Assembly: GCF_964213995.1 (NCBI RefSeq)
Contig: NC_135808.1
Location: 23,684,001-23,748,000 of the forward strand
From: Mustelus asterias
Taxonomy: Eukaryota
Length of the DNA stretch: 64,000 nucleotides
Direction: 5' to 3'
Shown here: positions 14,001 through 64,000 of the stretch, piece by piece
Position numbering within the stretch: position 1 is the first letter of the stretch
How the letters are laid out: every line of letters starts with the position of its first letter
Translations under genes and position numbers: made by a program
Notes under the pieces: model-generated
Told to the model about the DNA's origin: nothing
What the model saw: only the letters and a program-made list of their open reading frames with translations
The model's database searches: none

Positions 14001-17000
14001 ACAACGAAGGGTACTCTGTCCACTGTGTCCCGTGTTTGTCTTCTGAGGAGGTCGGTGCGGTTTTTTGCTGTGGCGCGTTGGAACTGTTGATCAATGAGTC
14101 TAGCGCCATATCCTGTTCTTATGAGGGCATCTTTCAGCGTCTGGAGGTGTCTGTTGCGATCCCGGCCTCGACCGGGATATTGGGTTCATGTCACACTATC
14201 TGTAACCCCCACAGTTGCGTGGACCTGCAGAGTTTCACTGGCTGTCTTGTCTGGAGACAATACACATCTTTTTAGCCTGTCTTGATGCTCTCTCCACTCC
14301 CATTGTTTTGTTTCTTAAAGACTGGATTAGTTGTAAGTATTCGCATTCCAACCATTATTCATGTAAATTGAGTCTGTGTCTTTATAAGTTCTGTTTGTGA
14401 ACAGAATTCCCACTCACCTGAAGAAGGGGCTTAGAGCCTCGAAAGCTTGTGTGGCTTTTGCTACCAAATAAACCTGTTGGACTTTAACCTGGTGTTGTTA
14501 GACTTCTTACTGTGTTTACCCCAGTCCAACGCCGGCATCTCCACATCATAATGTAATATCCCATGTTACACTATATCATGTTGTACTGTAATTTCCCAGG
14601 ATACATCAGGCCCTGTTATACTGTAATATCCCAGGATACACAAACAACAGTCATAGTTTAATATCCCAGGATACTCTGGGCTCTGTCATATTGTAATCCC
14701 AGGATACACTGCTGCCCGTGCAAAATATCCCAGAATGCACTGGGTCTTGTTGTACAATAATATCTCTGGACACACTGGGCTCTGTCATACTCTAATATCC
14801 CAATTAAACCAGGCCCTTGTGCACAGTAACATCCGAGGATACACTTGGCCTTGTCCCGACTGTAATATCGCAGGAAACACTGGGCCCTGACCAACTAAAG
14901 GGTCTCATGATACACAGCGCCCTGTCCCACTGTAATGTCCAATAACGCAATGGGTCCTGTACGCCCAGTTATTTCCCAGGATGCACTGGGCCCGGTCAAG
15001 CTCTAATATCCCAAGGTACACCCGGCCTTATCCATCTTGTAATATCCCAGAAGACACTGGATCCTGTTGCTCTGTAATACAGCAGGATACAGTGGGGTAT
15101 GTTTCATGTCAAATCCATGGACACACAATTATTTCCCTCGAATGGTGGTGCCAAGATATACAACGCATTGAAGATTAATATTTATTTCCCTCTCTGTATC
15201 TTGGGCCTCAGGCTGTCCTGGGCTGACAGCTCAGCACTGACCCTCACTCCTGTGATCCTGGTCTGAGGCTGGGTCCTCTCTCACAGTGAGAAACAGTCTT
15301 ACCGTAAATCACCACCAGTGTCTCATTCATCCCGCTGTGTTCCACCCGACAGGAATACACGGCCTGGTCCTCTGGATCAAACTCTACCCATTTCCGGATC
15401 TGGTAGGTGCTGTCGTGATTGGGTAAGATCCCAGTGGACAGAGTCTCATCAATCACCACTCCGTCTCTCCACAGATTCACCTCGATGGCTTGAGGGTAAA
15501 ACCCGGTGACGGCACAGGACAGCCGGTTAGAATCACCCAGACGGGTAAAGGACACGACAGGGGCAACTGAGAGAGAAAGAAAGAGCAGTCAGGACAGGAA
15601 CCTCGAGATAGAGAGTCCCGGCATCACCCCCTTCACCGACTCTCACCCCCCCTCACTCACCGACTCTCACCCCCCCTCACTCACCGACTCTCACTCCCCC
15701 CTCTTCACCGACTCTCACTCCCCCCTCACTCACCGACTCTCACTCCCCCCTCACTCACCAATTCTCACTCCCCCCTCACTCATCGACTCTCACTCCCCCC
15801 CTCATTCACCGACTCTCACTCCCCCCCTCACTCACCGACTCTCAATTCTCTCTGTCCGTACTCCAGGTATTTTCTCAGCCACTCAACACACTCCACCTCC
15901 AGGTAATGTTTCCATTGCTTGCTATTGGCCATGTTCCTGTCTAAATTGTTTTTGATGATCTCTCCCCAGGGGACCGGGGTCACCCACACCATGTGATCCT
16001 TGTCGAAGCTGATAAAATCATCTCCGTCCCACCCAAACTGGTTGAATCCACTCGTGGTCCCATCATCCCTCAGGTCACAGCCAGTCATCAGCTGGTAGAC
16101 ATGGATCCCTGTGGATCAGAAACACAAACAGACAATCAGAGACAGTCCCAATGGGCGATCCCAACTGCACAGCCAATCAGAGCCAGCCTCAATCCCTCCA
16201 CACATTCACAGCCAATCACATTTCCTGTCACATCTCCAATCGCAGCCAATCAACCTCTGGCCCCCGGTTCCTGATCCACTCTGGGTTTCTCCTCATTCCC
16301 ACCTGGATCCCCGGGTGCTGGGAGAGTGAGCACTCACCTCCTGTCTGGTTGGTGCGGGTCATGAAGCGCGGAATAGTAAGTTTGGAGTACATCTCCTGCT
16401 TCTGTGTGAGAATCTTCTTCCGCTCCCAGGCTGCCCGACCCTCGCTCTCCACCATCCACTGCTCCCGGGGGATCAGCTCCCTCCGATCGCTGTCGTACAC
16501 AACAAACTGGACACCGTCCACATAACCGACAGCCACAAACTCCGGGAAATCCGGGATCGGAGTCATTCCCGTGAAGAAATACCGGAGAGAGTGAGAGCCT
16601 GAAATATAGAGAGAGAGAATTCAGAATAGACACCCGAAAAACACCAACACACTCACACACACACACACACACACAGATCAGGGCATGAACCCCAAAACAC
16701 TGATTCCAAACCGAGAGCAAGACCTCCACCCAGCCTGGCATTGCCTCTCTCACACCCCATCACTCACTGACCCAGGGTTAATGCCCCAGTACCCAGCCTG
16801 GCATTGCCCCTCTCACACCCCATCACTCACTGACCCAGGGTTAATGCCCCAGTACCCAGCCTGGCATTGCCCCTCTAACACCCCATCACTCACTGACCCA
16901 GGGTTAATGCCCCAGTACCCAGCCTGGCATTGCCCCTCTCACACCCCATCACTCACCTGCAGACAGCTCTCCACACAGAAGGACCAGCTCTATCAGTCCA

Positions 17001-17020
17001 ATCATTGCTGCTTCCCTCAT
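8051..17020 (-). CDS. MHC class I heavy chain gene A (UAA-related, non-classical-type), 7 coding exons
   Basis: Exons 17020-16957, 16598-16338, 16108-15836, 15566-15303, 8874-8770, 8325-8293, 8097-8051. All have GT-AG boundaries and phase 1, and the spliced frame is open to TGA at 8051. Confidence 0.93.
8293..8325 (-). CDS. Gene A exon 6 (cytoplasmic, Tyr-containing)
   Basis: GRGKSDYNPAN; 33 bp; AG/GT flanks; paralogous exon at 42455-42487. Confidence 0.85.
8770..8874 (-). CDS. Gene A exon 5 (transmembrane)
   Basis: EPKSHSQVAVTVGIVVGVLVLIALIIVAVVIYNKK; 105 bp; cag/gtagga boundaries. Confidence 0.9.
9085..9860 (-). mobile_element. Degenerate CR1 3' fragment in intron 4, shared by A, B and C
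   Basis: Homologous to about 29755-31140(-) and 40145-41460(+); RRFTEMIPEM. Confidence 0.75.
10281..12960 (-). pseudogene. Penelope RT / GIY-YIG endonuclease ORF with one frameshift near 11985
   Basis: DVSALYTSIP, GTAMGTKFAP and YIDD RT motifs; NVVYLIRC...WYIGET GIY-YIG; N-terminal ORF 11923-12996 leaves frame after NNEEHYR. Confidence 0.9.
14415..14451 (+). ncRNA. Minimal type I hammerhead ribozyme motif in Penelope pLTR
   Basis: CAC-CUGAAGA-stemII-GAAAGCUU-GUG. Copies at about 9962-9998(-), 13057-13093(-), 17298-17334(-), 17380-17416(+), 53122-53158(+). Confidence 0.7.
15303..15566 (-). CDS. Gene A exon 4 (alpha3 Ig C1 domain)
   Basis: LSCAVTGFYP...W...YSCRVEH C1-set motifs; 264 bp. Confidence 0.95.
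15627..15840 (-). repeat. About 25-bp minisatellite in gene A intron 3
   Basis: (CTCACTCACCGACTCTCACTCCCCCC)n, about 8 units. Confidence 0.9.
15836..16108 (-). CDS. Gene A exon 3 (alpha2 domain)
   Basis: GIHVYQLMTGCDL...FGWDGDDFISFD...YLEVECVEWLRKYLEYG; 273 bp; conserved Cys pair. Confidence 0.95.
16338..16598 (-). CDS. Gene A exon 2 (alpha1 domain)
   Basis: GSHSLRYFFTGMTPIPDFPEFVAVGYVDG...RTNQTGG; 261 bp; N86 glycosylation sequon. Confidence 0.95.
16728..16956 (-). repeat. 63-bp tandem repeat at the start of intron 1 (gene A, about 3.6 copies)
   Basis: Unit GTGAGTGATGGGGTGTGAGAGGGGCAATGCCAGGCTGGGTACTGGGGCATTAACCCTGGGTCA. Confidence 0.9.
16957..17020 (-). CDS. Gene A exon 1 (signal peptide)
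   Basis: MREAAMIGLIELVLLCGELSA followed by G|gtgagt donor. Confidence 0.88.
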
Positions 17021-17113
17021 GTTGGAGAAACATTTGGAGGAAACTCTTTTTCGAAGAAAGGCCATTTTCTCAACTCACTCCTTCTGCCTTTTCCTGTTTA
17101 CACTGAGCCGCAA

Positions 17114-17184
17114 TCTGATTGGACACAAAATCGGACTGAACCAATCAGTATAAAGAGATTCAGTGAGTCATCAGTCTCCGGCAG
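17114..17184 (-). promoter_or_regulatory. Gene A proximal X1-X2-Y module and second CCAAT
   Basis: Reverse complement GCCGGAGACTGATGACTCA...CTGATTGG resembles the MHC SXY X1/X2/Y boxes. Confidence 0.7.
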
Positions 17185-17243
17185 AATAGACACAAACAGG
17201 ATGAGAAACTGCCTCGATGTTGAGAACTGTCCAATCAGGTAAA

Positions 17244-17641
17244 AAGTTTAACAACACCAGGTTAAAGTCCAACAGGTTTATTTGGTAGCAAAAGCCACAC
17301 AAGCTTTCGAGGCTCTGAGCCCCTTCTTCAGGTGAGTGGGAATTCTGTTCACAAACTGTTTGTGAACAGAATTCCCACTCACCTGAAGAAGGGGCTCAGA
17401 GCCTCGAAAGCTTGTGTGGCTTTTGCTACCAAATAAACCTGTTGGACTTTAACCTGGTGTTGTTAAACTTCTTACTGTGTTTACCCCAGTCCAACGCCGG
17501 CATCTCCACATCATGACAATCAGGTAAAGTCATGATGATTTTCACTCCATCTGACGAAGGAGCAGCGTTCCGAAAGCTAATGGTATTTGCTACCAAATAA
17601 ACCTGTTGGACTTTAACCTGGTGTTGTTAAAACTCTTACTG
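17244..17641. mobile_element. Two Penelope pLTR fragments in gene A promoter; the first includes a perfect palindrome
   Basis: pLTR sequence; CAATCAG(G/A)TAAA repeated at 17232, 17517 and 17642. Confidence 0.85.
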
Positions 17642-17683
17642 CAATCAGATAAATACAGCTGCTGACATCATCAGTTGCCGGGT
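17642..17683 (-). promoter_or_regulatory. Gene A distal X1-X2-(Y) module
   Basis: Reverse complement CCCGGCAACTGATGATGTCA...CTGATTGC; Y box clipped by a Penelope insertion. Confidence 0.55.
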
Positions 17684-17769
17684 AGAATCAGCTGGAAGGA
17701 GTTTGATGCAGTGACAGAGGGAAGGACATTCAGAACAGGAGCAGGTCTGATCTAACTATTCACTCGCAG

Positions 17770-20801: not shown

Positions 20802-23800
20802 ATGGAGCAGATACTAAAACCCGATAGATTAGAATTGAATCCTCAAGCCGTAGGAGCCTCTAACAGCTTTGATCACTGGCTGCGATGTTTCGAAACTTTC
20901 CTCACCGCCGCCTCCTCCATCATCCGGACCGAAACCGACAAGCTACACGTGCTCCACGCCCGGGTAAGCGATCAAGTATTCTCGATGATTAGAGACGCTG
21001 AAACTTACGAGGATGCGATTGAACTTTTAAAAGGCCAGTACAACAAACAGACTAATGTAATCTACGCCAGACATCTTCTGGCTACTCGCAGACAACAGCC
21101 AGGAGAATCGGGCGATCAATTATTGTGTGCGATGCGAGCACTTGGCAGGGCCTGCAACTGCAAGGCCATAACAGCTGCCCAAAACACTGAGGACTTAATC
21201 AGAGATGCCTATGTCATGGGTGTCAGGTCAAACTATATCCGACAACGACTGCTGGAACAGGGTGAGCTGGACCTACAAAAGACTGTAGCGCTTGCCAACT
21301 CGTTAGATGTGGCCTACCGTAATCTCGAGGCCTACACCCCCGACCACGGGGGCGCATCATGGATGCTGCAGTCGCCGCCACCTCTGTACTCGGGAGGGCC
21401 GCAGGCCTACACCACGCCACGTCCCACTAATGACGCGACCGCTGCGGCAGTCTCTGGAGGCCCGAAGTGCTACTTCTGCAGCCTGGGGAAGCACCCCCGA
21501 CAACGCTGCCCGGCGAAGGATGCGATCTGCTCCGGGTGTGGAAAGAAGGGCCATTACACTAAGGTATGCAGGGCAAAGTCGACCTCCAAGCCCAGTAGCA
21601 CCGCGTGCGACCCATGGGGGCTGCCACCTTGGGCACCGGTAGCTGCGTGTGAGCCATGCGGGCCGCCATCTTGGACGCCATTAGCCGCGTGTGGGCCGTG
21701 CGGGCCGCCATCTTGGATGCCGTCAGCCACGTGTGGGCCATGCGGGCCACCATCTTGGATGCCATCAGCCACGTGTGGGCCGTGCAAGCCGCCATCTTGG
21801 ACGCCGTCAGCCGCGTCGCAAAATCCAACAGTGGCTTCGGTTACGCTGGACCAATCCAGGCCTCACCAACTCACCAGGTCCATGATGGACATTGAGGTAA
21901 ACGGTCGCACTACAAACTGTTTATTTGACTGTGGGAGTACAGAGAGCTTTATTCACCGTCACACAGTGAGTCGCTACGCCCTTTCAGTACTGCCAGTGAA
22001 GAAAACGATCTCCATGGCTTCAAAGTCCCACTCGGTGGATGTCCTCGGGAACTGCGTGGCGACCCTGACTGTACGGGGCACAGTGTACAAAAACTTCAGG
22101 CTCCTCATGCTGCCACAACTCTGCGCTGCCGTACTCCTGGGGCTAGATTTCCTGTGTCACCTTAAGAGTGTCACCATGGAGTATAATGGGCCTTTTCCCC
22201 CACTCTCTGTTTGCAATCACCAGTTCTTAGATCGCCCACCGTGCACCACCTGCAGCCTCTCATGCCTTAAAGTCGTCCCTCCCTCACTGTTTGAAAATCT
22301 CACCCCCGATTGCAAGCCCATCGCCACCAAGAGCAGACGGTACAGTGCTGGAGACAGGGCTTTTATCAGGTCCGAAGTACAACGGCTCCTAGGGGAGGGG
22401 ATCATTGAGGCCAGTACCAGCCCCTGGAGAGCCCAAGTGATGCGCATCAATTGGACACGAGGCACTAAGCTTCGGTAAAAGAAGGCTTTTATTAACTAAC
22501 AATGGAACTAACAGAACTTTAACACACTATCCCAGACTGAAGAGGTCCCGCCCGAGCAGGGAGTCTTATACCTCTCCCAGGAGGCGGAGCCCGACTGGGA
22601 TGTGCCACAACAGTAACAACCACAGGTGTATCAATCCCACCCTAGCCCAACAACAACATTAGAACAATCCCACAGTGGGAACCAACGATGGTTCACCACA
22701 CCAAGTAGGAGTTGTTAAGACTGGGGAGAAACATCGCATGGTCATTGAGTACAGTCAGACCATAAACCGCGACATGCAGCTGGACGCGTACCCCCTTCCC
22801 CGCATATCTGACATGGTTAATCAGATTGCGCAATATCGGGTGTTCTCCACCATCGACTTAAAATCTGCTTACCACCAACTCCCTATCCGCCCGGAGGACC
22901 GCCAATATACTGCCTTCGAGGCGGATGGCCGCCTGTATCACTTCCTTAGGATCCCCTTCGGCGTCACCAACGGGGTCTTGGTTTTCCAGCGTGAGATGGA
23001 CCGAATGGTAGACCAGAATGGGTTGCGGGCCACCTTCCCATACCTAGATAACGTCACCATCTGCGGCCATGATCAGCAGGACCACGACGCCAACTTCCAC
23101 AACTTCCTCCACACCGCCACACTCCTAAATCTGACCAATAATAAGGAGAAGTGCGTATTCCGCACACGCCGCCTTGCCATCCTTGGTTGTGTTGTGGAAA
23201 ACGGGGTCATCGGTCCCGATCCCGACTGCATGCGTCTCCTCCTGGAACTTCCCCTCCCCACCAGCCTCAAAGCCCTGAGGAGATGCCTGGGCTTCTTCTC
23301 ATATTATGCCCAGTGGGTCCCCAATTATGCGGATAAAGCCCGTCCGCTCATCAAATCCACCTCTTTTCCCCTGACGGCAGAGGCCTGCCTGGCCTTCGAC
23401 TGCATCAAAGCAGACATCGTGAAGGCCACGATGCACGCTGTAGACGAATCCATCCCGTTCCAGGTGGAGAGCGATGCGTCTGTCTTCGCCCGAGCCGCCA
23501 CCCTTAACCAGGCGGGCAGACCCATGGCCTTCTTCTCATGAACCCTCCAAGGCCCTGAAATTCAACAGTCCTCTGTCGAAAAGGAGGCCCAAGCCATAGT
23601 GGAAGCTGTACGGCACTGGCGTCACTACTTAGCTGGTAAACGATTCACCCTACTCACGGACCAACGGTCAGTTGCATTCATGTTTAACAACACGCAGCCG
23701 GGCAAGATCAAAAATGATAAAATATTGAGATGGAGAATTGAGCTTTCCACCTACAATTACGACATCTTATACCGGCCCGGGAAGCTCAATGAGCCCCCAG

Positions 23801-26320: not shown

Positions 26321-27311
26321 TTGAGGAAGAGTTGTATATTAGTTTTGAACCTGAATCACTTTAATTGACATTTCGAATCCCAGAGTTGTTATGGGGCAGA
26401 AGGAAGCCATTTCACCTATTTTATTTGCACCAGCTCTGCAAACGGGCATTGTGGTTTAGCGCCTTTTAAACATTTAATTATCTGTGATTCAATGGCAATA
26501 CTATCACTGAATCCCCCACTGTGAACATCCTGGGGGTTGCCATTGACCAGAAACTGACCTGGACAAGCCACAGAAACACTGTAGCTGCAAGAGTGGGTCA
26601 CAGGCTGGGAATTTTGTGGAGAGTTTAAATTTTAAGTTCATGCATTAGTATTGCAAGTAGGCTTACATGAACACTGCAATGAAGTTACTGTGAAATGATG
26701 TTGGGATACTAATGCAAGTGTGATTGAATGAGTGTCATTCTGTTACGTCTTAAAATGTTCCCCACCACAGTGGTGTTGCCCCTCGCCTGTGGCATCAGTT
26801 TTGTACTGAAGACTTTACAGAGGCAGGAAGTGAAAAATAAATCTCATTTATTGTAGAAATTGGAACAATGTTAAAAATTGCAGAAATAGATTCTGGTTTG
26901 AAAAACAGAAACCAAACATCCTCACACCATCAATATATCTCTGGGACACAGACTCCCCGACCCCCAACAATCCATTCCTCCCAATCCCACCCTGTGGGTT
27001 CAGCACAACAGCTCCTTCCCAATTTACCTGCACCAGTGTAAACCCCGGGGATTGTCCCAGGGAGCGAACCCCCTCGTTCCACAGCCCACCCACCTCACAG
27101 TGAAAGCAATGAGTGAATCGGCCTTGAGTGAAATGGATTCCTAAACTCGACACAGGTTAAACAGGGCAGATCAGAAGAGATTAAAACTTCCAGCTGCAAA
27201 CAGAGCAATCCCTGATAAAACATCCCAGTTCCATTTACAGAGTTCCATATGTAGAGCTTGAATCCGTCAGTCGCTGTTACCTCCATGAAATCACATGGCA
27301 GCATCTGTGAG

Positions 27312-27957
27312 CAAAACCCATCGGACCGCCAAACACCAGCTAAACCCATCAGACCCCCAAACACCAGCTAAACGCATCAGAGCCCCAAACACCAGCAAAA
27401 CCCATCAGACCGCCAAACACCAGCTAAACCCATCAGAGCCCCAAACACCAGCAAAACCCATCAGACCCCCCAAACACCATCTAAACCCATCAGACCCCCA
27501 AACACCAGCTAAACCCATCAGACCCTCAAACACCAGCTAAACCCATTAGACCCCCAAACACCAGTTAAACCCATCAGACCCCCAAACACCAGCCAAACCC
27601 ATCATAGCCCCAAACAGCAGCTAAACCCATCAGATCCCGCAAACACCAGCTAAGCCCATCAGACCCCCAAACACCAGCTAAGCCCATCAGACCCCCAAAC
27701 ACCAGCTAAACCCATCAGACCCCCAAACACCAGCCAAACCCATCAGAGCCCCAAACAGCAGCGAAACCCATCAGATCCCGCAAACACCAGCTAAGCCCAT
27801 CAGACCCCCAAACACCAGTTAAACCCATCAGACCCCCAAACACCAGCTAAACCCATCAGACCCCCAAACACCAGCTAAACCCATCAGACCCCAAACACTA
27901 GCTAAACCCATCAGACCCCAAACACTAGCTAAACCCATCAGATCCGCGCCCCAAACA
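27312..27957 (+). repeat. 27-28-bp minisatellite downstream of the class I 3'UTR
   Basis: (CCAGCTAAACCCATCAGACCCCCAAACA)n; shorter arrays at about 7316-7382 and, inverted, 43366-43516. Confidence 0.92.
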
Positions 27958-27995
27958 TCCAGAAAACGATCAGACATATCGCGCAATATAACTGA

Positions 27996-31140: not shown

Positions 31141-31267
31141 GATGCACTGGGCTTTGTTGTACTGTAATATCCCAGAATGCACTAGGCCCTGCTGTACTGT
31201 AATAGCCCAAGATACACTGGGCTTTATTGTACTCCAGGATGCACTGGGCCCCATTGTACTGTTATAA

Positions 31268-35075: not shown

Positions 35076-35135
35076 CACATTTCTTTACCACAATTAAACA
35101 CAAAGTTTGTTTCCCAATCAGCTTTGTGTCTATTC

Positions 35136-52030: not shown

Positions 52031-52081
52031 TTCAATGTTCTTCCCTCTGTCACTGCATCAAATTCCTTCCAGCTGATTCTA

Positions 52082-52123
52082 CCCAGCAACTGATGATGTC
52101 AGCAGCTGTATTCAGCTGATTGG
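52082..52123 (+). promoter_or_regulatory. Gene D distal X1-X2-Y module
   Basis: CCCAGCAACTGATGATGTCA...CTGATTGG, close to the MHC X-box consensus CCYAGNRAC. Confidence 0.6.
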
Positions 52124-52171
52124 ACAATTCTCAATATTGAGGAAGTTTCTCAACCTGTTTGTGTCTATTCT

Positions 52172-53217
52172 TGATGTGGAGATGCCGGCGTTGGACTGGG
52201 GTAAACACAGCAAGAAGTTTAACAACACCAGGTTAAAGTCCAACAGGTTTATTTGGTAGCAAATGCCACTAGCTTTCGGAGCGCTGCCCCTTCATCAGGT
52301 GGAGTGGAGAAATGCTCACAAACAGGGCACAGAGACACAAACTCAATTTACAGAATAATCTTCATGACACACGACAGCGCAGAGTCGCTGAGCAGAGACT
52401 GATAGCCAAGTTCCGCACGCATGAGGACGGCCTCAACCGGGATCTTGGGTTCATGTCACACTGTCTGTAACCCCCACAGCTTGCCTGGACTTGCAGAATC
52501 TCACTGGCTGTCCTGTCTGGAGACAACACACATCTCTTTAACCTGTGCTTAATGCTCTCCCCACTCACATTGTCTGTACCTTTAAGACTTGATTATCTGC
52601 AAATACTGCATTCCAATCATTATTCTGTAAATTGAGTTTGTGTCTCTGTATGACCTGTTTGTGCAGTAAGAGTTTTAACACCACCAGGTTAAAGTCCAAC
52701 AGGTTTATTTGGTAGCAAATGCCATAATAAACCTGTTGGACTTTAACCTGGTGTTGTTAAAACTCTTACTGCGTTTACTCCAGTCCAACGCCGGCATCTC
52801 CACATCATGCCCTGTTTGTGAGCATTTCTCCACTCCACCTGACGAAGGGGCTTGGAGCTCCGAAAGCGAGTGGCTTTTGCTACCAAATAAACCTGTTGGA
52901 CTTTAACCTGGTGTTGTGAGACTTCTTACTGTGTGCAGAGTTTCACTGGCTGTCTTGTCTGGAGACAATACACATCTTTTTAGCCTGTCTTGATGCTCTC
53001 TCCACTCCCATTGTTTTGTTTCTTAAAGACTGGATTAGTTGTAAGTATTCGCATTCCAACCATTATTCATGTAAATTGAGTCTGTGTCTTATAAGTTCTG
53101 TTTGTGAACAGAATTCCCACTCACCTGAAGAAGGGGCTCAGAGCCTCGAAAGCTTGTGTGGCTTTTGCTACCAAATAAACCTGTTGGACTTTAACCTGGT
53201 GTTGTTAAACTTCTTAC
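52172..53217. mobile_element. Composite of Penelope pLTR fragments in gene D promoter
   Basis: Several pLTR pieces in both orientations; TGTGTCTATTCT flanks both sides (52160-52171, 53218-53229). Confidence 0.85.
52267..52301 (-). ncRNA. Minimal hammerhead ribozyme motif (CUGAUGA variant)
   Basis: CAC-CUGAUGA-AGGGGCAGCGCUCC-GAAAGCUA-GUG; related copies at about 31363-31398(-) and 35474-35508(-). Confidence 0.72.
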
Positions 53218-53228
53218 TGTGTCTATTC

Positions 53229-53297
53229 TGCCAGAGACTGATGACTCACTGAATCTCTTTATTCTGATTGGACACAAAATAGGACTGAACCAATCAG
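53229..53297 (+). promoter_or_regulatory. Gene D proximal X1-X2-Y module and second CCAAT
   Basis: GCCAGAGACTGATGACTCA...CTGATTGG...CCAATCAG. Confidence 0.7.
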
Positions 53298-53389
53298 ATT
53301 GAGGCTCAGTGTGAACAGGAAAAGACAGGAGTGAGTTGAGAAAATGGCCTTTCTTTGAAGAAGAGTTTCCTCCAAATGTTTCCCCCAAC

Positions 53390-53453
53390 ATGAGGGAAGC
53401 AGCAATGATTGGACTGATAGTGCTGGTCCTTCTGTGTGGAGAGGTGTCTGCAG
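53390..53453 (+). CDS. Gene D exon 1 (signal peptide)
   Basis: MREAAMIGLIVLVLLCGEVSA then G|gtgagt. Confidence 0.85.
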
Positions 53454-56400
53454 GTGAGTGATGGGGTGTGAGAGGGGCAATGCCAGGCTGGGTACTGGGG
53501 CATGAACCCTGGGTCAGTGAGTGATGGGGTGTGAGAGGGGCAATGCCAGGCTGGGTACTGGGACATTAACCCTCAATCTTTAGATGACTTGAAAGTGGGA
53601 CTTTGCTCACAGTTTAAAGAGATGGCAGAGCAGTCGGTTGACCTTGCTGTCCTGTGGCCTGGCATCCGCTGGCAGCTGCCCTCTGGCTACCTGAGACCTG
53701 GAGTGTCCCATCATGCTGAGGGGTTCCTGAACAGATATAGGAACCTCCTCTGTCACCTTGACGACTGAAGTCAATGGCAGAGGTGCTGCGACACACTCGT
53801 ACCTCCCCGCTGAAGTAGACAAGGAGCTGATGGTGAATGTGTGTGTCTCACCCACCTCTCCCCTTACCACTACTCCCTTGAGCTGAGAGCCTAGCCAATG
53901 GCATACTGCCTGCACAATTCTCCAGCATCCATCTGCTGGATGTGGATCTCCAAGAGTTGGCAATCTCTCGAGGGAGAAGGCCGCAAGTGCATAAAGCGGG
54001 GAAATGGCAGCGTTCATGGCTTGGATAGACTTCTCCAACCTAAATGCACCTCACACCAAATCTCCAGCATCTGTTGTCTTGCTGACAACTCCAGAAGCTT
54101 GTCATCAGCCTAGGATTTAGTATCGTCCTCACCTCTCAAGCTTCAGGGGCCTTGTCTGTTAGAACATCCGACAGCTGGTCAGGCACGTGTCGTGTTCTCA
54201 CCAGGTTGTGACATTGAATCTAAGCGCAAACTCACACACACCATGGTGACAGTGTCTGCGCTGGTAGAGGGTGTGGGGAAATGATGATATGATACTGCAC
54301 CTCTGAAGTCCACAGGACCATAGAAATGATACAGCATAGAAGGGGGCCATTCAGTCCTCTCCTAACCCTTACTGATGGACAACTATTGGCCGCAGTTGTC
54401 AGCTCTCTGCTCTGATGAAAGACCCGAGAGAGGGAGTGAAAAGATCAAAGGGTTTTACCCTTCCAAGAATGAGCTTGTAGATTCAGCTGGAGTTCAGCTC
54501 AATGTGCAGAGTGGAGAAGACACATTAGCACCATATACATGCTTGCCTGAGGCTGCCTCCTTCCAGTTCATACAATCCCTACAGTGCAAAAGGAGGCCAT
54601 TTGGCCCATCTAGTCGACACCTACTCTGCGACAGAGCATCTTACATAGGCCGTATCCCTATAACTCCACACATTTACCCCACTAATCACCCTGACCTTCA
54701 CATCTTTGGTCTTAAGGGGTAATTTATCCTGGCCAATCCACCTATTCTGCACATCTTTGCACTGTGGGAGCAACCCGGAGCACCTGGTAGAAACCCATGC
54801 AGGCAAGGGGCGAACCTACAAACTCCACACAGACAGTCACCCAAGGCCGGAATTGAACACAGGTTCCTGGCACTGAGAGGCAGCAGTGCTAACCAGTGCC
54901 ACCGCGCTGCCAATCATGAACCCACTTCTGCTCTGCGACCGCAATCCTACCTCATTATCTGCTCTGCTGTCCTGCCAGTTTCAGAACCTCCTCCCTGGAC
55001 GTGAGGATGTCAGGAACGGAACTTCACCACCAACCTGGCTCCTTTCCTCGATTTTGTGGGCACTCTCCTGCTGTAGAAATAAGGAAAGGTGATGTCAATT
55101 GCCCCACAAGTAAGGTGCAATATCTAAGTTGCTGGCACTCTGGCTGTGGACTTTGATTCTGTCACCTTGTTCTTGAAATAGTTTATCCACAATGATTGTC
55201 GCAAACCCTTGTGACATGCAAAACACCCAAGTTAGCACCAAAACTCAATGAATGTAAGAATATAGTCTACACCCTGTCCTTATAATAATTTAACACTTTT
55301 AAGCCCCAATTTTACAACCGCTGTAGAGATTGTTAACTTTTAAAGATAAGTTTTCCAGTAAAAGCTGAAAGGCTATCCTGATGAGATTTCACATTTAAAA
55401 AGGACAAGTCAGTTCTGTTTCAGCACTTCCGCAGGAGGTAACACACACTTAACTATCAAAAAGATTGATGAAGCTCTTGGAGTGTAGTGAAAGCAGGAAG
55501 TAACTCAAATGTGGAATTAGGAGGCTAAAAGGAGCTGTGAAATGTCTTTAGCTTTTTATGCATATATGATGAGCAAGAGAAAGAGTAGGCCCACTCAAGG
55601 GCAATGGAGAGAAGTTATGTGTGGAGCTACAGGAAGCGGGGGAGATCTTTAATGAATACTTTGTACAGGTATTCACCACGGAGAAGGACATGACAGAGGT
55701 TGAGGTCAGGGAAAGGTGTGAGAACACTCTAGAGAATGTCAATATAATCAAAAGAGGAAGTGTTGACTGTCCTAAATTGCATTAAGGTAGACAAGTCCCC
55801 AGGGCCAGATGGGATCTATCCCAGGTTACTGCAGGAGGCAAGGGGAGAAATAGCTGGGACCTCAACTGGTATCTTCACATCCTCTTTGAGCACAGGTGTG
55901 GTTCCAGAGGACTGGAGAATATCCAACGTTGTTCCCTTGTTTAAGAAAGGAAGCAGGGGTAATCCAGGAAATTATTGGTCAGTGAGCCTGACGCAGTGGT
56001 GGGGAAGCTTTCGGAGAAGATACTAAGGGACAGGGTATATGCACATTGAGGAAAATGGACTAGTTAGTGACAGGCAGCATGGTTTGTTTGGGAAAGGTCA
56101 TGTCTCACCAATTTCATTGACTTTTTTTTGAAGAGGTGACAAAGAAAATTGATGAAGGGTGGGCTGTGGATGTCGTTTACATGGATTTTACTAAGGCATT
56201 TGACAAGGTCCCACATGGCAGACTGGTACAAAAACTAAAATCACACGTGATTCGCTTGGGCTGGCTAAATGGATGCAGAACTGACTTTGTTATAGAAGAC
56301 AGAGTAGTGGTGGAAGGGTGTTTTTCAGAATGGAGATCTGTAGCTAGTGGTGTTCTGCAGGGATCAGTGCTGATTGTAGTATATATAAATGGAGGAAGAT

Positions 56401-59400
56401 GTGGGTGGTCTGATTAGTACATTTGCGGATGACATGAAGATTGGCGGAGTTGCTGATAGTGCCGAAGATACAACAGGATATAGCTGGATTGGCGACTTGG
56501 GCACAGAAATGGCAAATGGAGTTTAATCCGGACAAATGCGAGGTGATGTATTTTGGAGGATCAAATTTAGGTGTAAATTATACAATAAAAAGCAGAACCC
56601 TGAGGAACATTAACGTACAGAGGGATCTGGGCGTGCAGATCCACAGTTCCCTAAAAGTGGCAACACAGGTGGCCAAGGTGACTAAGAAGACATATGGCAT
56701 GCTTGCCTTCATCAGCTGGGACATTGAGTACAAGAGTTGGCAAATCATGTTGTAGCTATATAAAACCTCGGTCAGACCGCATTTGGGGTATTGCGTGCAG
56801 TTCTGCTCACCACACGACCAGAAGGACATGGAAGCTTTGGAGAGATTGCAAAGAAGGTTCACGAGGATGTTGCCTGGTCTCGAGGGCATTGGCTATGAGG
56901 ATTAATAAACTCGGATTGTTTTCACTGGAAAGACAGAGGCTGAGGGGAAACCTGATAGAGGTCTACAAAACCATGAGGGGCACAGACAGGGTGGATAGTC
57001 AGAGGCATTTTTCCAAATGGAAAGGTCAATTACAAGAGGGCACAGGTTCAAGATGACAGGGGGAAAGTTTATGGGAGAAATGCAGGGGAAGTTTTTCATG
57101 CAGTGTAGTAGGTGCCCGGAACCCACTGCCAAAGGATGTGGTGGAAGCAAGCACGTTAGCAACATTTAAGAGGTATCTGGATGGGGACATGTTTAGGGAG
57201 GGAATAGAGGGATACGGACCGAGTAAGGACAGAAGATTTTTTTTAAAGTTTAGTGAGAGCATCATGATCAGCACAAACTTGGAGGGCCGAAGGGCCTGTT
57301 CCTGTACCTTTCTTTGTTCTATCATTCCCTGCTTTGATATGTAAATAGGCAAATTCCAAGCTTATAATATTGTTGTCCTCAAACTCAGGTCAACTAATGC
57401 CTTGGATAAAGATGCTCAAACTCTCAAATTTAAAGTAAAGTTGCCATGGGCCCAGGTGACCACAGGTTGCTCTCCTCAAAGCAGAGAGGGAAAGGAGTCT
57501 GGTGGTGATTTAACCTGAGGATCACCACACCTCAGGCGAGGGGCAAGGTTGAGAAAGTGGGGCCTTCATGAATAACCTCAGCCGGTACAGGGATTGAACC
57601 CACGCTGTTGGCATCGCTCTGCCCCAGCTGTCCAATAACTGAACGAACCAACTCTCCTCAAATTATTGTACAACATGTTTCCTTTATTGTACTGTACCAA
57701 AGTTTGGGGCAGCCTGGTGGCACAGTGGTTAGCACTGCTGCCTCACAGCTCCAGGGACCAGAGTTCAATTCTTGGCTTGGGTCACTGTCTGTGTGGAGTT
57801 TGCACGTTCTCCCCGTGTCTCTGTGGGTTTCCTCCCACACTCCAAAGATGTGTAGGTTAGGTGGATTGGCAATGCTAAAGTACCCTGGGATGCGTCGGTT
57901 AGAGGCATTCGCGGGGTAAATGGGGAGTTACAGGAATAGGGCTTGGGTGGGATTGTTGTCAGTGCAGAGTCAATGGGCCAAATGGCCTCCTTCTGCATTG
58001 TAGGGTTTCTATGATTTCTACAACACAAACTTTCGTACACCAAATATCAAACTTTCTTCCACACAAGGAATTCAACCTCTGACTTAGTTATACACAAAGT
58101 ATTTAAACACGAGTATAATCATCGAATCCCTACAGTGCAGATGGAGGCCATTCAGCCCATCAAGCTTGCACCAACAACAAGCCCACCCAGGCCCTATACC
58201 TGCAACTCCACATATTTACTCTGCTAATCCCCAAAACGCTAAAGGGGCAATTTAGCATGGCTAAACAACCTGGCCCACATTTTTGGAGTGAGGGACAAAA
58301 CCAAAGCACCCGGAGGAAACCCACAGACAGTGACCCGAGGCCAGAATTGAACCTGGGTCCCTGACACTGTGAGACAGCAGTGCTGACCACTGTGCCACCA
58401 CATCGTTATATAGACTATAACACTCTGACTTACTTACTGTCTGTACTCATCTGTTGATACTCCTGATTACCTGCAAGTGTCGGACTATCGTCACTCCACC
58501 TATATATTCTGTACCTGCTCACCTCGCTCCCCTTCACCTGACAAAGGAGCAGCACTCCGAAGGATTATGATTATGATCCTGTGTTACTCCTGCCGATGTT
58601 GCTTTGTTTCTCCATCTTATACGGATGTTGCTGGCACTGATCGTGCTTCCAGTCATGGACCTCACTCAGGTATTTATCTCAGGAGCACGGCACACAGGGT
58701 CTGTGTTCAATCAGCTCCTGTGCCTATCCTTCACTGCAGACCCCTACACCAATGCTGCTCCTACAGTCCTTAGCCTGATACAGAGTGGGCTCTTTTAACC
58801 ATCACCATTTGCTGGGATCTTCATTTTGCTGGTTGTTCAGCCTTTCTGTTGCAGTCCAGTAAATGATACAAGTCCAGCTTCTTCACAAACTCACTTTATT
58901 CCCTTTTACAACTCCACATACACACACCCAACACACTGTCACCTGTAACCTCTTTATATATCCAGTGGTTTTTTTGGCTAACCGATTCAACTAAATCAAA
59001 TCAACTGAGGGACAAATTAAAAGAGGCAGCCCCCAAAAGGAAGGGAACAGCCCAAAACAAAAAGCAAAATAGTACGGAAACTTAAAACGTTAAATCAAAA
59101 TGGAATTAGAATGGTCAGTAACACTCCAATCCTCTATTCTCTTTTAAAACTCCACATACACATCCCAACACCCAGTGTCACCTGTAACCTCTTTATCTAT
59201 CCTAGTGACTTCTATTAAATGATTAACAGCCAATTTAGGACTTAAATAGAAGGTGACTGTTAACCTATTCCTGACACTGGTATCTTATGGATACCTCTCT
59301 GGAGAGGGAGCATGCGGTGTCCACGGGCGCGATTGACGCCTTCCGCGACCGCTGGGCGCCGCAGGGGCTGGGGTGTATTATCGACCCCGATAATCACCTT

Positions 59401-62400
59401 TTGGTTTGACGTTTTAAGTTTCCTTTTGACTTTGTTTTTGGTTCGGGCTGTTCCCCCCTTCCTTTTGGGGAGCCGCCCCTTTTACTTTGTCCCTAAGTTA
59501 ATTTGAGTTCGTTTACTTGATTGGTGCCGAAAGAGCTATCTTATGGATACCTCTCTGGAGAGGGAGCATGCGGTGTCCACGGGCGCGATTGACGCCTTCC
59601 GCGACCGCTGGGCGCCGCAGGGGCTGGGGTGTATTATCGACGCCGATAATCACCTTTTGGTTTGACGTTTTAAGTTTCCTTTCGACTTTGTTTTTGGTTC
59701 GGGCTGTTCCCCCCTTCCTTTTGGGGAGCCGCCCCTTTTACTTTGTCCCTAAGTTAATTTGAGTTCGTTTATTACGTTGGTACCCGAAAGAGCTACCTTA
59801 TGGATACCCATCTGGCCACGAACTCCTTTAAGTGAACAGTCCAAAGTTGTTCCCAGCTTCTCTCTGTCCACATTTCCCCTGTTTCTGTGGGAGATTTGAG
59901 GGGGTCCAGTTGGGACACGGAGTCCCTGATCAGGGTAGAGTGAGCGATGTGGACAGGAGCTGACAGATTTTGAGGAGGCAGGAGGGAGATCGAGGAGCAT
60001 TGGAAGCCTCGGTCTTTGTTGGGGTAGGTGCGTGGGGATTGTGTTAAATGTGTTTCCAGAAGGTGAAGTTGCATGAGATCAGAGGTGAGCTGGCAAGGTG
60101 GATACAAAACTGGCTCGATAAAAGAAGACAGAAGGTAGCAGTGGAAGGGTGCGTTTCTGAATGGAGGGCTGTGACAAGTGGCATTCCTCAGGGATCAGTG
60201 CTGGAATCTTTGCTGTTTGTAATACATATAAATGATTTGGAGGAAAATGTAACGGGATTGATTAGTAAGGTTGCGGACGACACAAAGGTTGGTGGATTTG
60301 CGGATAGCGATGAGGACCATCAGAGGATACAGCAGGATATAGATTAGTTGAAGACTTGGGCGGAGAGGTGGCAGATGGAGTTTAATCCGGACAAATATGA
60401 GGTAATGCATTTTGGAAGGTCTAATACAGATAGGAAATATACAGTGAATGGCAGAACCCTTAAGAGTATTGATAGGCAAAGGGATCTGGCTGTACAGGTA
60501 CACAGAACACTGAAAGTGACAATGCAGGTGGAGAAGGTAGTCAAGAAGACATACGGCATGCTTGCCTTCATCAGCCGGGGTATTGAGTTTAAAAATTGGC
60601 AAGTCATGTTGCAGCTTTATAGAACCTTAGTTAGGCCGCACTTGGAATATAGAGTTCAATTCTGATCGCCACACTATCAGAAGGATGTAGAGGCTTTGGA
60701 GAGGGTACACAAAAGATTTACCAGGATGTTACCTGGTATGGAGGGAGTTAGCTATGAGGAGAGGTTGGAGAAACTTCGTTTGTTCTCACTGGAGCGACGG
60801 AGGTTGAGGGGAGACGTGATAGAAGTCTACAAGATTCTGAGAGGCAATGGCAGAGTGGATAGTCAGAAGTTTTTTCCCAGGGTGGAAGAGTCAATGACTG
60901 GGGAGCATAGGTTTAAGGTGTGAGGGGCAAGGTTTAAAGGAGATGGCCAAGGCAGATTTTTTACACAGAGAGTAGTGGGTGCTTGGAACCCGTTGCTGGG
61001 GGAGGTAGTGGAAGTGGATACAGTAGTGACTTTTAAGGGGCGTCTGGACAAATCCATGAATAGAATGGGAATAGAGGGATATGGTCCCCGGAAGGTAGGG
61101 GGTTTTAGTTAAGTCAGGCAGCACGGTCGGTGCAGGCTTGGAGGGCCGAAAGGCCAGTTCCTGTGCTGTAATTTTCTTTGTTCTTTGTTCTCTGGGTGTT
61201 GATGTTTTGGGGTTCACACCTGATGTCTCTCTCTCTGGGCGTTGGTGTTTTGGGGTTCACACCCTGATGTCTCTCTCTCTCTCTGGGTGTTGGTGTTTTG
61301 GGGTTCACACCCTGATGTCTCTCTCTCTCTGGGTGTTGGTGTTTTGGGGTTCACACCCTGATGTCTCTCTCTCTGGGTGTTGGTGTTTTGGGGTTCACAC
61401 CCTGATGTCTCTCTCTCTCTGGGTGTTGGTGTTTTGGGGTTCACACCCTGGTTCTCTCTCTCTCTGTGTTTCAGGTTCTCACTCTCTCCGATATTTGGCC
61501 ACTGTTATGACTCCGGTCTCTGGTCTCCCAGAGTTTGTGATTGTCGGGTTTGTGGACGATGTGCAGTTTTTTATGTATGACAGTGACTTGAAGGAGTTGG
61601 CCGGCCGTGGGCAGTGGTATATGGAGAACAAGAGGCCCAATTTCTGGATGCGGAAGACAGTGCTTGCACGGGAGAAGGAGAAACATTTTAAATTCTACAT
61701 TCAGAGCCTCATGTCCCGGACCAACCAGTCAGACGGTGAGTCCCTGCGCTCCCACCATCTGTCCTTCGAGAGAGGTTGGAAGCAGAATGAGATCCGAGAA
61801 CCAGGGTCAGGGGAAAAGTTTCTCCATCGCTTCGAGCATGGAGCGGCAGCAATGGGGAGCACCCTTTAAATACAAAGAAATATTCTTCCTAATTAGCTGA
61901 TTGTACAAGGTTTGGTTTATAATTTAAGTTTATTTATTGGTGTCACAAGCAGGCTTACATTAACACTGTAATGAAGTTACTGTGAAAACCCCCTCGTTGC
62001 CACACTCCGGCAGCTGTTCGATACACTGAGGGAGAGGATAAATATGTGGGGTTACGGGAATATGGTGCAGATTGTGGTCGGCGCAGACTCGATGGGCCAA
62101 ATGGCCAATGCACCTAACCAGCACGTCTTTCTGACTGTGGGAGGAAACCAGAGCACCCGGAGGCAGACACGGGGAAATCGTACAAACTCCACGCAGACAG
62201 TGACCCGAGGCCGGAATCAAACCCAGGCCCCTGACGCTGTGAGGCAGCAGTGCTAACCACTGTGCCACCGTGGGGGCACAGATTTCAGGTTTTGGGAAGG
62301 AGATGCAGGAAAATCCTCACTACAAAGTGCTTGGCAGACACCTGGGATTGTTGGCCTGTGAGGGCGATGGAAGCAGGGACGATCAATGACTTCAAAAGGA

Positions 62401-63443
62401 AATTGAATCGGACATCAAAGTAATAGATAGTCAGCACTGTGGGATAAGCGGGGGGGGGGATGACACTGACCAGTTTGCAATATAGAGAGCCAGCATGGAC
62501 TCAAAGGAATGAATAAATGACGACGATAATGATTGGGAATTTGGTGGATGAAGGTCTCCTTAAAATATTTCAATTGGGAGTCTAGTAGTGTGGAGTTGCA
62601 GACAAATTAAATCTTAGTCCGAGACCTGTAAATTTACACAGCTGCTGCTTTGGGTTTCCTTCAATTAATAGACATGGTTCAGGGGGGTCCTTTAAATATA
62701 GGTTGGGTTCGCGGATCATTTACATGGGGTGGCACAGTGGTTAGCACTGCTGCCTCACAGCGCCAGAGTTCAATTCCAGCCTCAGGTCTGTGTGGAGTTT
62801 GTACATTCTCCTCGTGTCTGCGTGGGTTTCCTCCGGGTGCTCCCGTTTCCTCCCACAGACCAAGGGTGTGCAGGTTAGGTTGATTGGCCATTCTAAATTG
62901 ACCCGAGTGTCAGGGAATTAGCAGGATAAATATGTGGGGGTACGGGAATAGGGCCTGGGTGGGATTGTGGCCGGTGCAGACTCGATGGGCTGAATGGCCT
63001 CCTTCTGCACTGTAGGGATTCTATGACATGTTAAGGAGTCTTATAAATACACATATTGCGGTCCAGGGGTCCATTAACACTGGCTTCCGAGGTGATATCT
63101 GATTAACTGTGTGGTGGGGTCACTCAGTCGAACTGAGCCTCATTGGTCGTATACGTCTGATTGACAGGGATCCACTTCTTCCAGATGATAACTGGCTGTG
63201 ACCTGGCTGATGATTCGATGACGAGTGGCTTCTCACAGTTCGGCTGGGACGGGCAAGATTTCATGACATTTGATAAAGATGAGCAGGTATGGCTGACACC
63301 GGTACCGTGGGGTGAGAACACCATGACGTGGTGGCAACAAATCAGGGCCTGGGATAATCAGCAGTGGAAGTTTTACCTGGAGCAGGAGTGCATTGAATGG
63401 CTGAAGATCTACTTGGAATATGGACAGCAACAGCTGGGAGTCG
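53390..63443 (+). CDS. MHC class I heavy chain gene D (divergent non-classical-type), exons 1-3; runs off the window
   Basis: Exons 53390-53453, 61475-61735, 63168-63443 splice in frame. The window ends in intron 3, just before the expected alpha3 acceptor. Linking exon 1 across the 8 kb intron is inferred. Confidence 0.85.
54572..54912 (-). mobile_element. HE1-like SINE
   Basis: Same family. Confidence 0.78.
55470..57320 (+). mobile_element. Degenerate CR1 LINE
   Basis: KSPGPDGIYP, DFTKAFDKVPH, WQMEFNPDKC; many frameshifts. Confidence 0.9.
57707..58400. mobile_element. Two HE1-like SINEs tail to tail (57707-58015 plus; 58122-58400 minus)
   Basis: Same family, opposite orientations. Confidence 0.78.
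59281..59807 (+). mobile_element. Two tandem 256-bp 3' ends of a Tx1-like (L1 clade) element
   Basis: SLEREHAVSTGAIDAFRDRWAPQG resembles the Tx1 ORF2 C-terminus; TA(T/C)CTTATGGATAC occurs three times; inverted 3'UTR relative at about 58970-59115. Confidence 0.65.
60060..61180 (+). mobile_element. CR1 3' fragment
   Basis: GIPQGSVL, ADDTKVGG, RPHLEY. Confidence 0.9.
61190..61465 (+). repeat. About 44-48-bp tandem repeat before the gene D exon 2 acceptor
   Basis: ((CT)nGGGTGTTGGTGTTTTGGGGTTCACACCCTGATGT), about 6 copies. Confidence 0.9.
61475..61735 (+). CDS. Gene D exon 2 (alpha1)
   Basis: GSHSLRYLATVMTPVSGLPEFVIVGFVDD...RTNQSDG; 261 bp. Confidence 0.93.
61925..63027. mobile_element. SINEs in gene D intron 2 (61925-62272 minus; 62727-63027 plus)
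   Basis: A/B boxes and SINE body. Confidence 0.78.
63168..63443 (+). CDS. Gene D exon 3 (alpha2)
   Basis: GIHFFQMITGCDLADD...YLEQECIEWLKIYLEYG; 276 bp, one codon longer than A/B. Confidence 0.93.
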
Positions 63444-63958
63444 GTGAGTGAGGGGGGAGCGAGAGTCGGTGAGTGAGGGGGGGAGTGAGAGTCGGTGAGT
63501 GAGGGGGGGAGTGAGAGTCGGTGAGTGAGGGGGGAGTGAGAGTCGGTGAGTGAGGGGGGAGTGAGAGTCGGTGAGTGAGGGGGGAGTGAGAGTCGGTGAG
63601 TGAGGGGGGAGTGAGAGTCGGTGAGTGAGGGGGGAGTGAGAGTCGGTGAGTGAGGGGGGAGTGAGAGTCGGTGAGTGAGGGGGGGGGTGAGAATCGGTGA
63701 GTGAGGGGGGAGTGAGAGTTGGTGAGTGAGGGGGGGAGTGGGAGTCGGTGAGTGTGGGGGGGAGTGAGAGTCGGTGAGTGTGGGGGGGAGTGAGAGTCGG
63801 TGAGTGAGGGGGGAGTGAGAGTCGGTGAGTGAAGGGGGAGTGAGAGTCAGTGAGTGAGGGGGGAGTGAGAGTCGGTGAGTGAGGGGGGAGTGAGAGTCGG
63901 TGAGTGAGGGGGGGGAGTGAGAGTATGTGAGCGAGGGGGGAGTGAGAGTCGGTGAAGG
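63438..63958 (+). repeat. About 25-bp minisatellite in gene D intron 3
   Basis: (GAGAGTCGGTGAGTGAGGGGGGAGT)n, about 20 units. Confidence 0.95.
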
Positions 63959-64000
63959 GGGTGATGCCAGGACTCTCTATCTCGAGGTTCCTGTACTGAC

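Follow-up and report, generated by a model that had tools for sequence, protein, structure and literature searches.

For HLA-E and H2-Qa1, the passages of Joly and Rouillon (2006, PMC1403747) that treat these genes describe an old orthology kept in alpha1-alpha2, with exon 4 (alpha3) homogenised within species by gene conversion. In the teleost U-lineage alpha1 and alpha2 are shuffled through intron 2, a process that the relevant sections of PMC6523485 present as allelic, at a classical locus with a long intron 2. For elasmobranchs, the part of PMC10751288 devoted to UBA reports a multicopy class Ib cluster located between c4 and rxrb; its main text has 0 occurrences of 'gene conversion', and its passages on the UBA cluster name no sublineages.

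In this study we analysed a window of 64,000 nucleotides (the whole stretch of DNA, in whose coordinates positions are given) lying within a cluster of ~50 shark nonclassical MHC class I (UBA family) loci at C8 21.6-24.7 Mb. It contains three class I genes, A (minus strand), B (plus strand) and D (plus strand), and a truncated remnant, C. Judged from the sequences, there is a real mosaic among them, but it is D and not A, and the conserved exons of D appear to have been overwritten around an old groove. In D, a promoter, leader, alpha3 and TM of its neighbours' type are combined with an alpha1-alpha2 whose sublineage is old, low in copy number and also represented in carpet sharks. We put the probability at roughly 0.8 that repeated gene conversion homogenises the leader, alpha3 and TM exons around the selected, ancient groove of D.

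Results

The UBA cluster

All genomic comparisons were made within one assembly (G000). The genes are identified as MHC class I by their leader, alpha1, alpha2, alpha3 and TM exons, which have open frames and are separated by GT-AG introns. Nurse shark UBA AAC60347, so labelled in the supplement of PMC10751288, shares a clade with A, B and D (support 100/100 for alpha1-alpha2 and 100/99 for alpha3), apart from classical-type outgroups. Thioester-domain genes at 20.3 and 21.0 Mb (C4, C3 and A2M not distinguished) flank the cluster on one side and an RXR exon at 26.1 Mb (subtype not distinguished) on the other, in agreement with a multicopy UBA cluster at the stated position between c4 and rxrb. 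Much of the cluster is recent block duplication, and some copies are 100% identical. Segment counts leave out 11 of the 51 family loci, in which exon 1 or 4 is absent from the extracted stretch; three exon-3 pseudogene matches (C8:22717600, 23123795, 23542257) were left out of comparisons as well.

Nine conserved peptide-terminus residues of classical class Ia were mapped on Triakis P0007, using a residue set and numbering that we take to be those of classical peptide termini. A and B each have 5/9 of them, which sets both apart from classical class Ia (UAA); D and its four carpet-shark orthologues have 7/9 (F59, W146) and are likewise not classical. UDA, UGA and UCA look unlike D to the eye in the supplementary alignment of PMC10751288. 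That alignment has no UEA-labelled sequence.

Gene A as an ordinary family member

17021-17730, minus strand: A promoter of the family default type, interrupted by a mobile element at 17239-17641
16957-17020, minus strand: A exon 1 (leader), 97-98% identity to B and D
16728-16956, minus strand: A 63-bp G-rich tandem array, 3.6 copies, beginning at the intron 1 donor
16338-16598, minus strand: A exon 2 (alpha1) of ordinary UBA type, 3.4% from the nearest locus, G000:C8:23776854
15836-16108, minus strand: A exon 3 (alpha2)
15633-15844, minus strand: A 25-bp array, copies of the exon 3/intron 3 junction
15303-15566, minus strand: A exon 4 (alpha3), homogenised across the family
8770-8874, minus strand: A exon 5 (TM), with 7 further nt 1/112 different from D
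27310-31260, minus strand: C, truncated gene remnant, with TM exon (29450-29346) and flanking introns
35123-38311, plus strand: B, promoter to exon 4, with divergent promoter, no 25-bp array and an intron 3 of 75 nt
35293-35356, 37298-37558, 37700-37972 and 38048-38311, plus strand: B exons 1-4
35512-35751: B 63-mer array, G-rich

The promoter, repeat arrays and groove of A are the family default. The first-pass annotation had tied A to D through the promoter and the intron 3 minisatellite. The 25-bp array is indeed common to both genes, and 39 of 41 aligned bases of the intron 3 flank are identical. However, the array occurs in 45 of the 51 family loci and the A-type promoter, at 91-96% identity, in 28 of the 29 other loci compared, and D ranks 34th of 39 in likeness to the A promoter. 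Where 17020-17730 had been matched to 52035-53390, both stretches do hold a family-type promoter, but much of the match is one mobile-element family, with separate insertions at 17239-17641 in A and, at another site, 52166-53222 in D. A second copy of D, called D2 here, has no such element, and the A promoter is without the short inversion seen in D. With a default promoter and independent insertions, the promoter was rejected as a special link between A and D.

The same annotation was right that exons 2-3 of A resemble B (85% identity in exon 2, 90% in exon 3) and differ from D (~70%), and that B has a different proximal promoter and no intron 3 array; B is one of five copies with these two traits. 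Yet in likeness to the A groove B ranks 32nd in exon 2 and 9th in exon 3, and for promoter, exon 2 and exon 3 alike, loci other than B and D are nearest to A. An A+B clade is rejected by the AU test in exon 2 (p = 0.018) and neither supported nor rejected in exon 3. For remnant C, a search for an exon 2 or exon 3 match found none.

Domain discordance in gene D

52034-53389, plus strand: D promoter of the family type, carrying a mobile-element insertion of its own (52166-53222) and, between inverted CCAAT boxes, a short inversion
53390-53453, plus strand: D exon 1, followed by 1.9 copies of the G-rich 63-mer (53454-53573); homogenised island 53390-53573
61189-61470, plus strand: D 46-bp array, ending 4 nt before exon 2
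61475-63443, plus strand: D-private block of exon 2 (61475-61735), intron 2 and exon 3 (63168-63443) with one extra codon
63438-64000, plus strand: D intron 3, with 25-bp array (63438-63955, 20 copies) and family-type flank
G000:C8:23748022-23748285, plus strand: D exon 4, just past the window, 97% identity to A
G000:C8:23754730-23754834, plus strand: D TM exon, outside the window

A D-private intron 1 of ~7.6 kb follows the exon 1/63-mer island. The 46-bp array at its far end is common at ~91% to three paralogues whose groove is 28% different. D-private sites extend from nt 2 of exon 2 to nt 270 of 276 in exon 3, and both edges of the block adjoin tandem arrays common to paralogues, so that the term repeat-bounded is descriptively right for D. 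Intron 2 of D gives no blastn alignment to that of A or B, and the intron 3 flank is 95-97% identical. The TM exon is 0-2 of 112 nt from the neighbours. Unique intron 4 sequence of D is 12-18% from A and B, which are 13% from each other; an intron 4 divergence like that of A and B also fits a single old capture.

Between A and D, dS is 0.905 in exons 2-3 (54.9/104.5 sites) versus 0.033 in exon 4 (2/62), with 0/16.8 in exon 1 (Fisher p = 5e-12). Against 14 representatives, the p-distance of D is low in exon 1 (0.03), rises to 0.30-0.31 in exons 2-3 and to 0.36-0.45 at the ends of intron 2, and falls back to 0.03 in the intron 3 flank plus exon 4 and to 0.012 over the initial 54 nt of intron 4. 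In alpha1-alpha2, D and D2 cluster with proteins of Hemiscyllium, Chiloscyllium (2) and Stegostoma (100/99 under two models); these grooves have in common a one-residue insertion and six residues absent from the 50 other rows. In the alpha3 tree the eight G000 genes form one clade (98/85). Grouping the G000 genes as a clade in alpha1-alpha2 is rejected by the AU test (p = 9.9e-5), as is a D-type clade for alpha3 (p = 6.6e-4). The pattern of HLA-E and Qa-1, alpha1-alpha2 grouping by orthology and alpha3 by species, is found here, and synonymous sites and introns show the same contrast. In carpet sharks the orthologues have retained a leader and a TM of their own.

In the exon 2 and exon 3 trees D branches as sister to the cluster, and among the six G000 class I loci outside it none was closer as a donor of the D groove. 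Catshark, horn shark and lamniform matches included no D-type groove, which is weak evidence of absence. When exon 3 of D was used as query for further homologues, three candidates emerged and all of them were discarded. A literature search of limited reach found no earlier description of a D-type UBA sublineage. The AlphaFold model of orthologue P0001 has a pLDDT of 67 (low confidence).

D2 lies ~0.7 Mb from D and has the same architecture, with an intron 1 that is 2.1% different and only one partial 63-mer unit. Its groove has no amino-acid change relative to D: 0 of 430 nonsynonymous groove sites differ versus 123 of 5742 sites in intron 1 (p = 9e-5). Conversion between D and D2 could also produce a low groove difference. 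In the 3' island 9 of 380 sites differ, which is not above the intron background (p = 0.43) and thus lends no support to conversion since the D/D2 duplication.

Exchange among ordinary members

G-rich tandem arrays of 63-mer, 25-mer and 46-mer type are present, as had been noted from the sequence; they make up 8.5% of the window, have a G content of 44-60% and contain G-run motifs, and in A occupy introns 1, 3, 4 and 5. Separate segment trees are discordant, and recombination between paralogues, as first proposed, is real. Where exchange between ordinary members is clearest, it involves single exons or short tracts with ends inside exons, not whole cassettes. In exon 3, neighbours 2.2% apart upstream show differences at 11.8 of 51 synonymous sites (p = 8e-10), and A and one paralogue show 2/58 synonymous differences in exon 2 and 11.5/51 in exon 3. 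One of four copies otherwise 0-1 of 684 apart carries 5 differences within 29 nt of exon 4. The idea that exchange is bounded by repeats stands for the two edges of the D block, where arrays do lie; it does not extend to the exon-3 patch and exon-4 tract, which end inside exons, or to the intron-4 edge, none of them located at an array.

Islands of near identity are centred on exons 1, 4 and 5. In nine duplicate groups 3' variation is 2.1% versus 1.0% in the groove, a biased excess, since groove identity had served to define the groups. In an incompatibility test, distance had no effect within exons 2-3 (p = 0.35) and had one over the whole gene (p = 0.002).

Discussion

We suggest that recurrent ectopic gene conversion overwrites the exons that D shares with its neighbours, perhaps after an older hybrid-gene event that gave D its ordinary intron 4. 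Conversions into the D groove might fail for lack of homology, or selection might remove them, as would be expected of a groove with a conserved binding partner, either ligand or receptor. On both sides of the groove, homologous DNA comes nearest in the tandem arrays, and tracts would for this reason end there; the arrays may also promote exchange.

A more active role of the arrays, as germline exchange sites between which double crossover or long conversion would carry complete exon 2-3 blocks from one paralogue to another, with D as such a capture, seems unlikely to us, although D-private sites do stop within ~6 nt of an array on both sides. It is also in line with the G content and G-run motifs of the arrays and with an intron 4 of D at ordinary-member distance. 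In addition, G000:C8:22967752, 23386625 and 24586063 have the 46-mer array in common with D, but not the rest of intron 1 or the groove, so an array can be homogenised with no conserved exon beside it; these three loci also appear to have the promoter inversion of D. However, a complete foreign exon 2-3 block set between matching flanks turned up in no pair, and the clearest case is an exon-3 patch that is back to host type before the last base of the exon. About 4 of 72 best-triplet breakpoints span an array, in a scan confounded by rate differences, and the island that follows exon 4 stops ~85 nt into intron 4, at a point without an array. D2 has its single partial 63-mer unit, and arrays are in any case common in these genes. 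It might be speculated that UBA as a whole is a germline cassette system, in which G-rich arrays derived from splice junctions flank exons 2-3 as exchange points, ancient grooves sit on a refreshed leader, alpha3 and TM, and D represents a class Ib lineage as yet without a name, whose ligand is invariant and which predates the split of carpet sharks from this genome's lineage; we regard this picture as doubtful.

Recent duplication with diversifying selection on the groove and purifying selection elsewhere, that is, birth and death with no recombination, is adequate for part of the ordinary members. The block duplications with identical copies fit it, as do differences among ordinary members that are largely nonsynonymous (16 nonsynonymous versus 1 synonymous in exon 2 of one pair). 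For D it is contradicted by the AU tests and by the synonymous contrast, since it cannot yield a dS of 0.9 beside 0.03 in one gene pair; nor can it produce an intron 2 without blastn alignment next to a near-identical intron 3 flank, or a groove whose closest kin are in carpet sharks and not among the neighbours. As a general account we consider it very improbable. Hardly any credence is left for A as a B-type groove on a D-type chassis. Within the genes of the window A does match B at 153 of 191 informative sites inside the groove and D at 61 of 69 outside, but the same two 'parents' are best for 10 of 16 ordinary genes in triplet scans, which are confounded by rate differences and were used only for the generality of this signal. 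The promoter of B and the groove of D are the unusual ones, so that most ordinary members look like B/D mosaics; with this shared signal and nearest relatives that are neither B nor D, A was rejected as a mosaic. Least probable of all is an assembly chimera or haplotype collapse, which a repetitive cluster with identical blocks might invite: D2 is distinct from D in intron 1 and insertions and distant in position, and has the same joins, and carpet-shark D-type proteins also join a D-type groove to a UBA-type alpha3.

The findings point to D as a testable class Ib molecule, with a groove kept across shark orders that split in the Jurassic, in a family of otherwise fast turnover. By analogy with HLA-E and Qa-1, D is a candidate for binding a conserved ligand or an innate-like receptor. 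Whole-protein or alpha3 trees should be read with caution, as they hide orthology among shark class I genes. Base-level edges at arrays make the question of conversion boundaries in MHC clusters testable with long reads.

Comparison with known systems

The cluster resembles elasmobranch UBA, as given in the UBA passages of PMC10751288, in being a multicopy class Ib cluster in a clade with AAC60347 and flanked by thioester-domain and RXR genes; it is unlike it in that one groove lineage is kept across shark orders while most others cluster by taxon. As with the teleost U-lineage in the sections of PMC6523485 cited above, ancient grooves are recombined with other domains and ordinary UBA members reassort alpha1 and alpha2, whereas D keeps alpha1 and alpha2 together. 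In a further system, coding-sequence tests placed conversion mostly in alpha3 (in MHC-I-like lineages only there); here the edges were mapped in genomic DNA. There is also a likeness to HLA-E/H2-Qa1 as portrayed in the corresponding passages of PMC1403747, with an orthologous groove and a homogenised alpha3. In contrast to that system, the partners here number ~50 and are nonclassical paralogues, homogenisation extends to leader, promoter and TM, the edges are located at tandem arrays, and no CD94/NKG2-like function is implied for D. A mode of evolution already known from mammals is thus seen here in a shark gene family.

The gene family and its cluster

The window contains three intact MHC class I genes, A (minus strand), B and D (both plus strand, with exon 4 of D just beyond the window end), together with the following partial gene, for which a search for a matching exon 2 or exon 3 found none:

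27310-31260, minus strand, 3' gene remnant with an intact-looking transmembrane (TM) exon

The best solved-structure match of the D alpha2 domain is 6lup, which we take to be nurse shark class I. Exon 2 of A has 55 matches in the genome (G000), every one on the same contig (C8) and all but two at 21.6-24.7 Mb. We assembled 51 family loci and 6 class I loci from outside the family, and exons 1-4 lay inside the fetched DNA for 40 of the 51. In trees the family clusters with nurse shark AAC60347, which is UBA according to the supplement of PMC10751288, and its flanks (thioester-domain genes on one side, an RXR gene on the other) agree with the UBA cluster position in that paper. UBA is described as an expanded, UAA-derived family in a 2025 review (PMC12562908). 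At a classical-type locus in another part of C8, the alpha3 domain clusters with houndshark (Triakis) proteins, which points to a carcharhiniform shark.

A several-gene class I block occurs in four copies of 99-100% identity (G000:C8 22.58-22.72, 22.99-23.12, 23.41-23.54 and 24.61-24.75 Mb), so that the duplication is either very recent or partly one of the assembly. A second cluster, at 31.0-33.6 Mb of C8 and probably the other nonclassical one, consists of divergent class I genes (26-37% to D alpha2), and one distant match lies at 3.66 Mb of that contig.

D, not A, is the mosaic gene

The first-pass annotation had read A as a groove cassette (exons 2-3, encoding alpha1-alpha2) exchanged onto a D-like chassis. 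The pairwise likenesses among A, B and D that it described do hold, but three genes alone mislead: the mosaic is real and of a known kind, and the gene that carries it is D. Exons 2-3 place A and D at a synonymous distance of 0.905, against 0.033 for exon 4 and 0 for exon 1 (Fisher p 5e-12); for reference, the values between A and a classical-type locus are 1.2 and 1.0. Sites private to D begin at nt 2 of exon 2 and end at nt 270 of the 276 in exon 3 (45 and 51 sites); exon 1, the ends of intron 1, the flank in intron 3, exon 4 and the first part of intron 4 have 0 or 1.

The best match of D exon 2 is a Hemiscyllium protein; the other members of its cluster and its relatives are from Chiloscyllium, Stegostoma and Rhincodon. 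In the alpha1-alpha2 tree D forms a clade with four of these carpet-shark proteins (100/99), and all five have in common a one-residue insertion and six residues found in none of 50 other rows. In the alpha3 tree D is placed among its neighbours (98/85). AU tests rejected a single clade of the G000 genes for alpha1-alpha2 (p 9.9e-5) and, for alpha3, a D-type clade (p 6.6e-4). The carpet-shark orthologues have retained a leader and TM of their own; the D TM exon, by contrast, is 0-2/112 nt from its neighbours. We infer that the D lineage lost its own flanking exons in the ancestry of this genome.

A second D-type copy, D2 (G000:C8:24430170), differs from D at 123/5742 positions in intron 1 and at 0/430 nonsynonymous groove sites, an identity that fits purifying selection or D-D2 conversion. 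In what we take to be the nine-residue peptide-terminus set, D keeps 7 of 9, with F59 and W146, and the four orthologues do likewise. In the D and D2 promoters a short segment is inverted between two CCAAT boxes that are themselves inverted (window ~53270-53295); G000:C8:22967752, 23386625 and 24586063 appear to have the same inverted orientation with a further deletion.

The promoter and intron 3 array taken as a special link between A and D turned out to be family-wide. Of 29 other loci, 28 have the A-type promoter at 91-96%. The 25-bp array is present in 45 of 51; of the six that lack it, five are B-type copies and the sixth is another gene. A mobile element, at different insertion sites in the two genes, accounts for much of the long A-D promoter match, and D2 lacks this element. 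In likeness to A, D ranks 34th of 39 for the promoter, and B 32nd for exon 2 and 9th for exon 3. A mosaic of B and D as the origin of A is rejected, as the same two genes are the best 'parents' for 10 of 16 ordinary genes tested. Hence A is an ordinary member; what is unusual is the promoter in B and the groove in D. A retroelement-like family has inserted repeatedly in promoters and introns (window 17239-17641, 52166-53222, 9864-14549, 31267-33068 and 35417-35511), at sites differing between A and D.

Probable gene conversion and a possible role of tandem arrays

Near identity is confined to three islands: from the promoter through exon 1 to the first unit of the 63-mer array at the start of intron 1; from the 25-mer array at the start of intron 3 through exon 4 to ~85 nt inside intron 4; and the TM exon with ~100 nt on either side. 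Unique intron 4 is 12-18% different among A, B and D alike. The ordinary members show tracts as well. In one of four gene copies otherwise 0-1/684 apart, 5 changes lie in a 29-nt stretch of exon 4. Two groups that are neighbours and whose upstream parts are 2.2% apart differ at 11.8/51 synonymous exon-3 sites, the odd exon 3 being 3/52 from a third lineage (AU p 9e-6). Islands and tracts fit recurrent ectopic gene conversion. Such conversion would recur freely in shared exons and would be blocked from the D groove by divergence and selection; an older hybrid event perhaps preceded it. However, the D-D2 difference in the 3' island (9/380) is not above background (p 0.43), the group-wide 3' island excess is biased by how groups were chosen, and an incompatibility test within exons 2-3 was null (p 0.35).

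The exchange had also been proposed to be repeat-bounded, and for D this description stands: both edges of the D-private block lie within ~6 nt of an array common to paralogues. The best support for the repeat idea comes from the left edge, where the 46-mer just before D exon 2 is common at ~91% to three genes that are 28% away in the groove and in which the rest of intron 1 does not align. Even so, a causal role of the arrays in exchange seems unlikely to us. The clearest tracts among ordinary members end within exons, the outer edge in intron 4 has no array, and the 63-mer of D2 is one partial unit. In a confounded scan ~4 of 72 breakpoints span an array, arrays are present in most introns of these genes, and homology limits alone predict edges at arrays. 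No family gene was seen to carry a complete exon 2-3 block of foreign origin with matching flanks on both sides.

The 25-bp unit (window 15633-15844 and 63438-63955) copies the junction between exon 3 and intron 3, and the splice donor thus recurs in every unit; alternative donors may be used. Within the family, the length of intron 3 varies between 75 and 2851 nt. A 42-bp GC-rich array lies at window 21601-21816, and D intron 1 contains a 256-bp tandem duplication (59281-59815; copies 96% identical).

Among the classical-type loci (G000:C8:41594242, 42400008 and ~43.41 Mb; L085-L088 and L092), two have an identical alpha3 exon and very different alpha1 exons, and one of these has its alpha1 type in common with a third locus bearing a different alpha3 type. 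In the first two loci, intron 3 opens with a GC-rich repeat. Domain shuffling is thereby suggested for the classical region too.

Comparison with known systems

In our literature search neither a conserved UBA sublineage nor conversion in shark UBA was described, although primary shark papers or their supplements may cover either. As far as that search reached, the ancient groove lineage of D was previously unnoted; it is the part worth following. Related processes are described for newts, with gene conversion biased to alpha3 (PMC12863176), and for teleosts, with alpha1/alpha2 shuffling (PMC6523485). The pattern in D resembles that of HLA-E/Qa-1, where homogenisation of exon 4 masks an old groove (PMC1403747).
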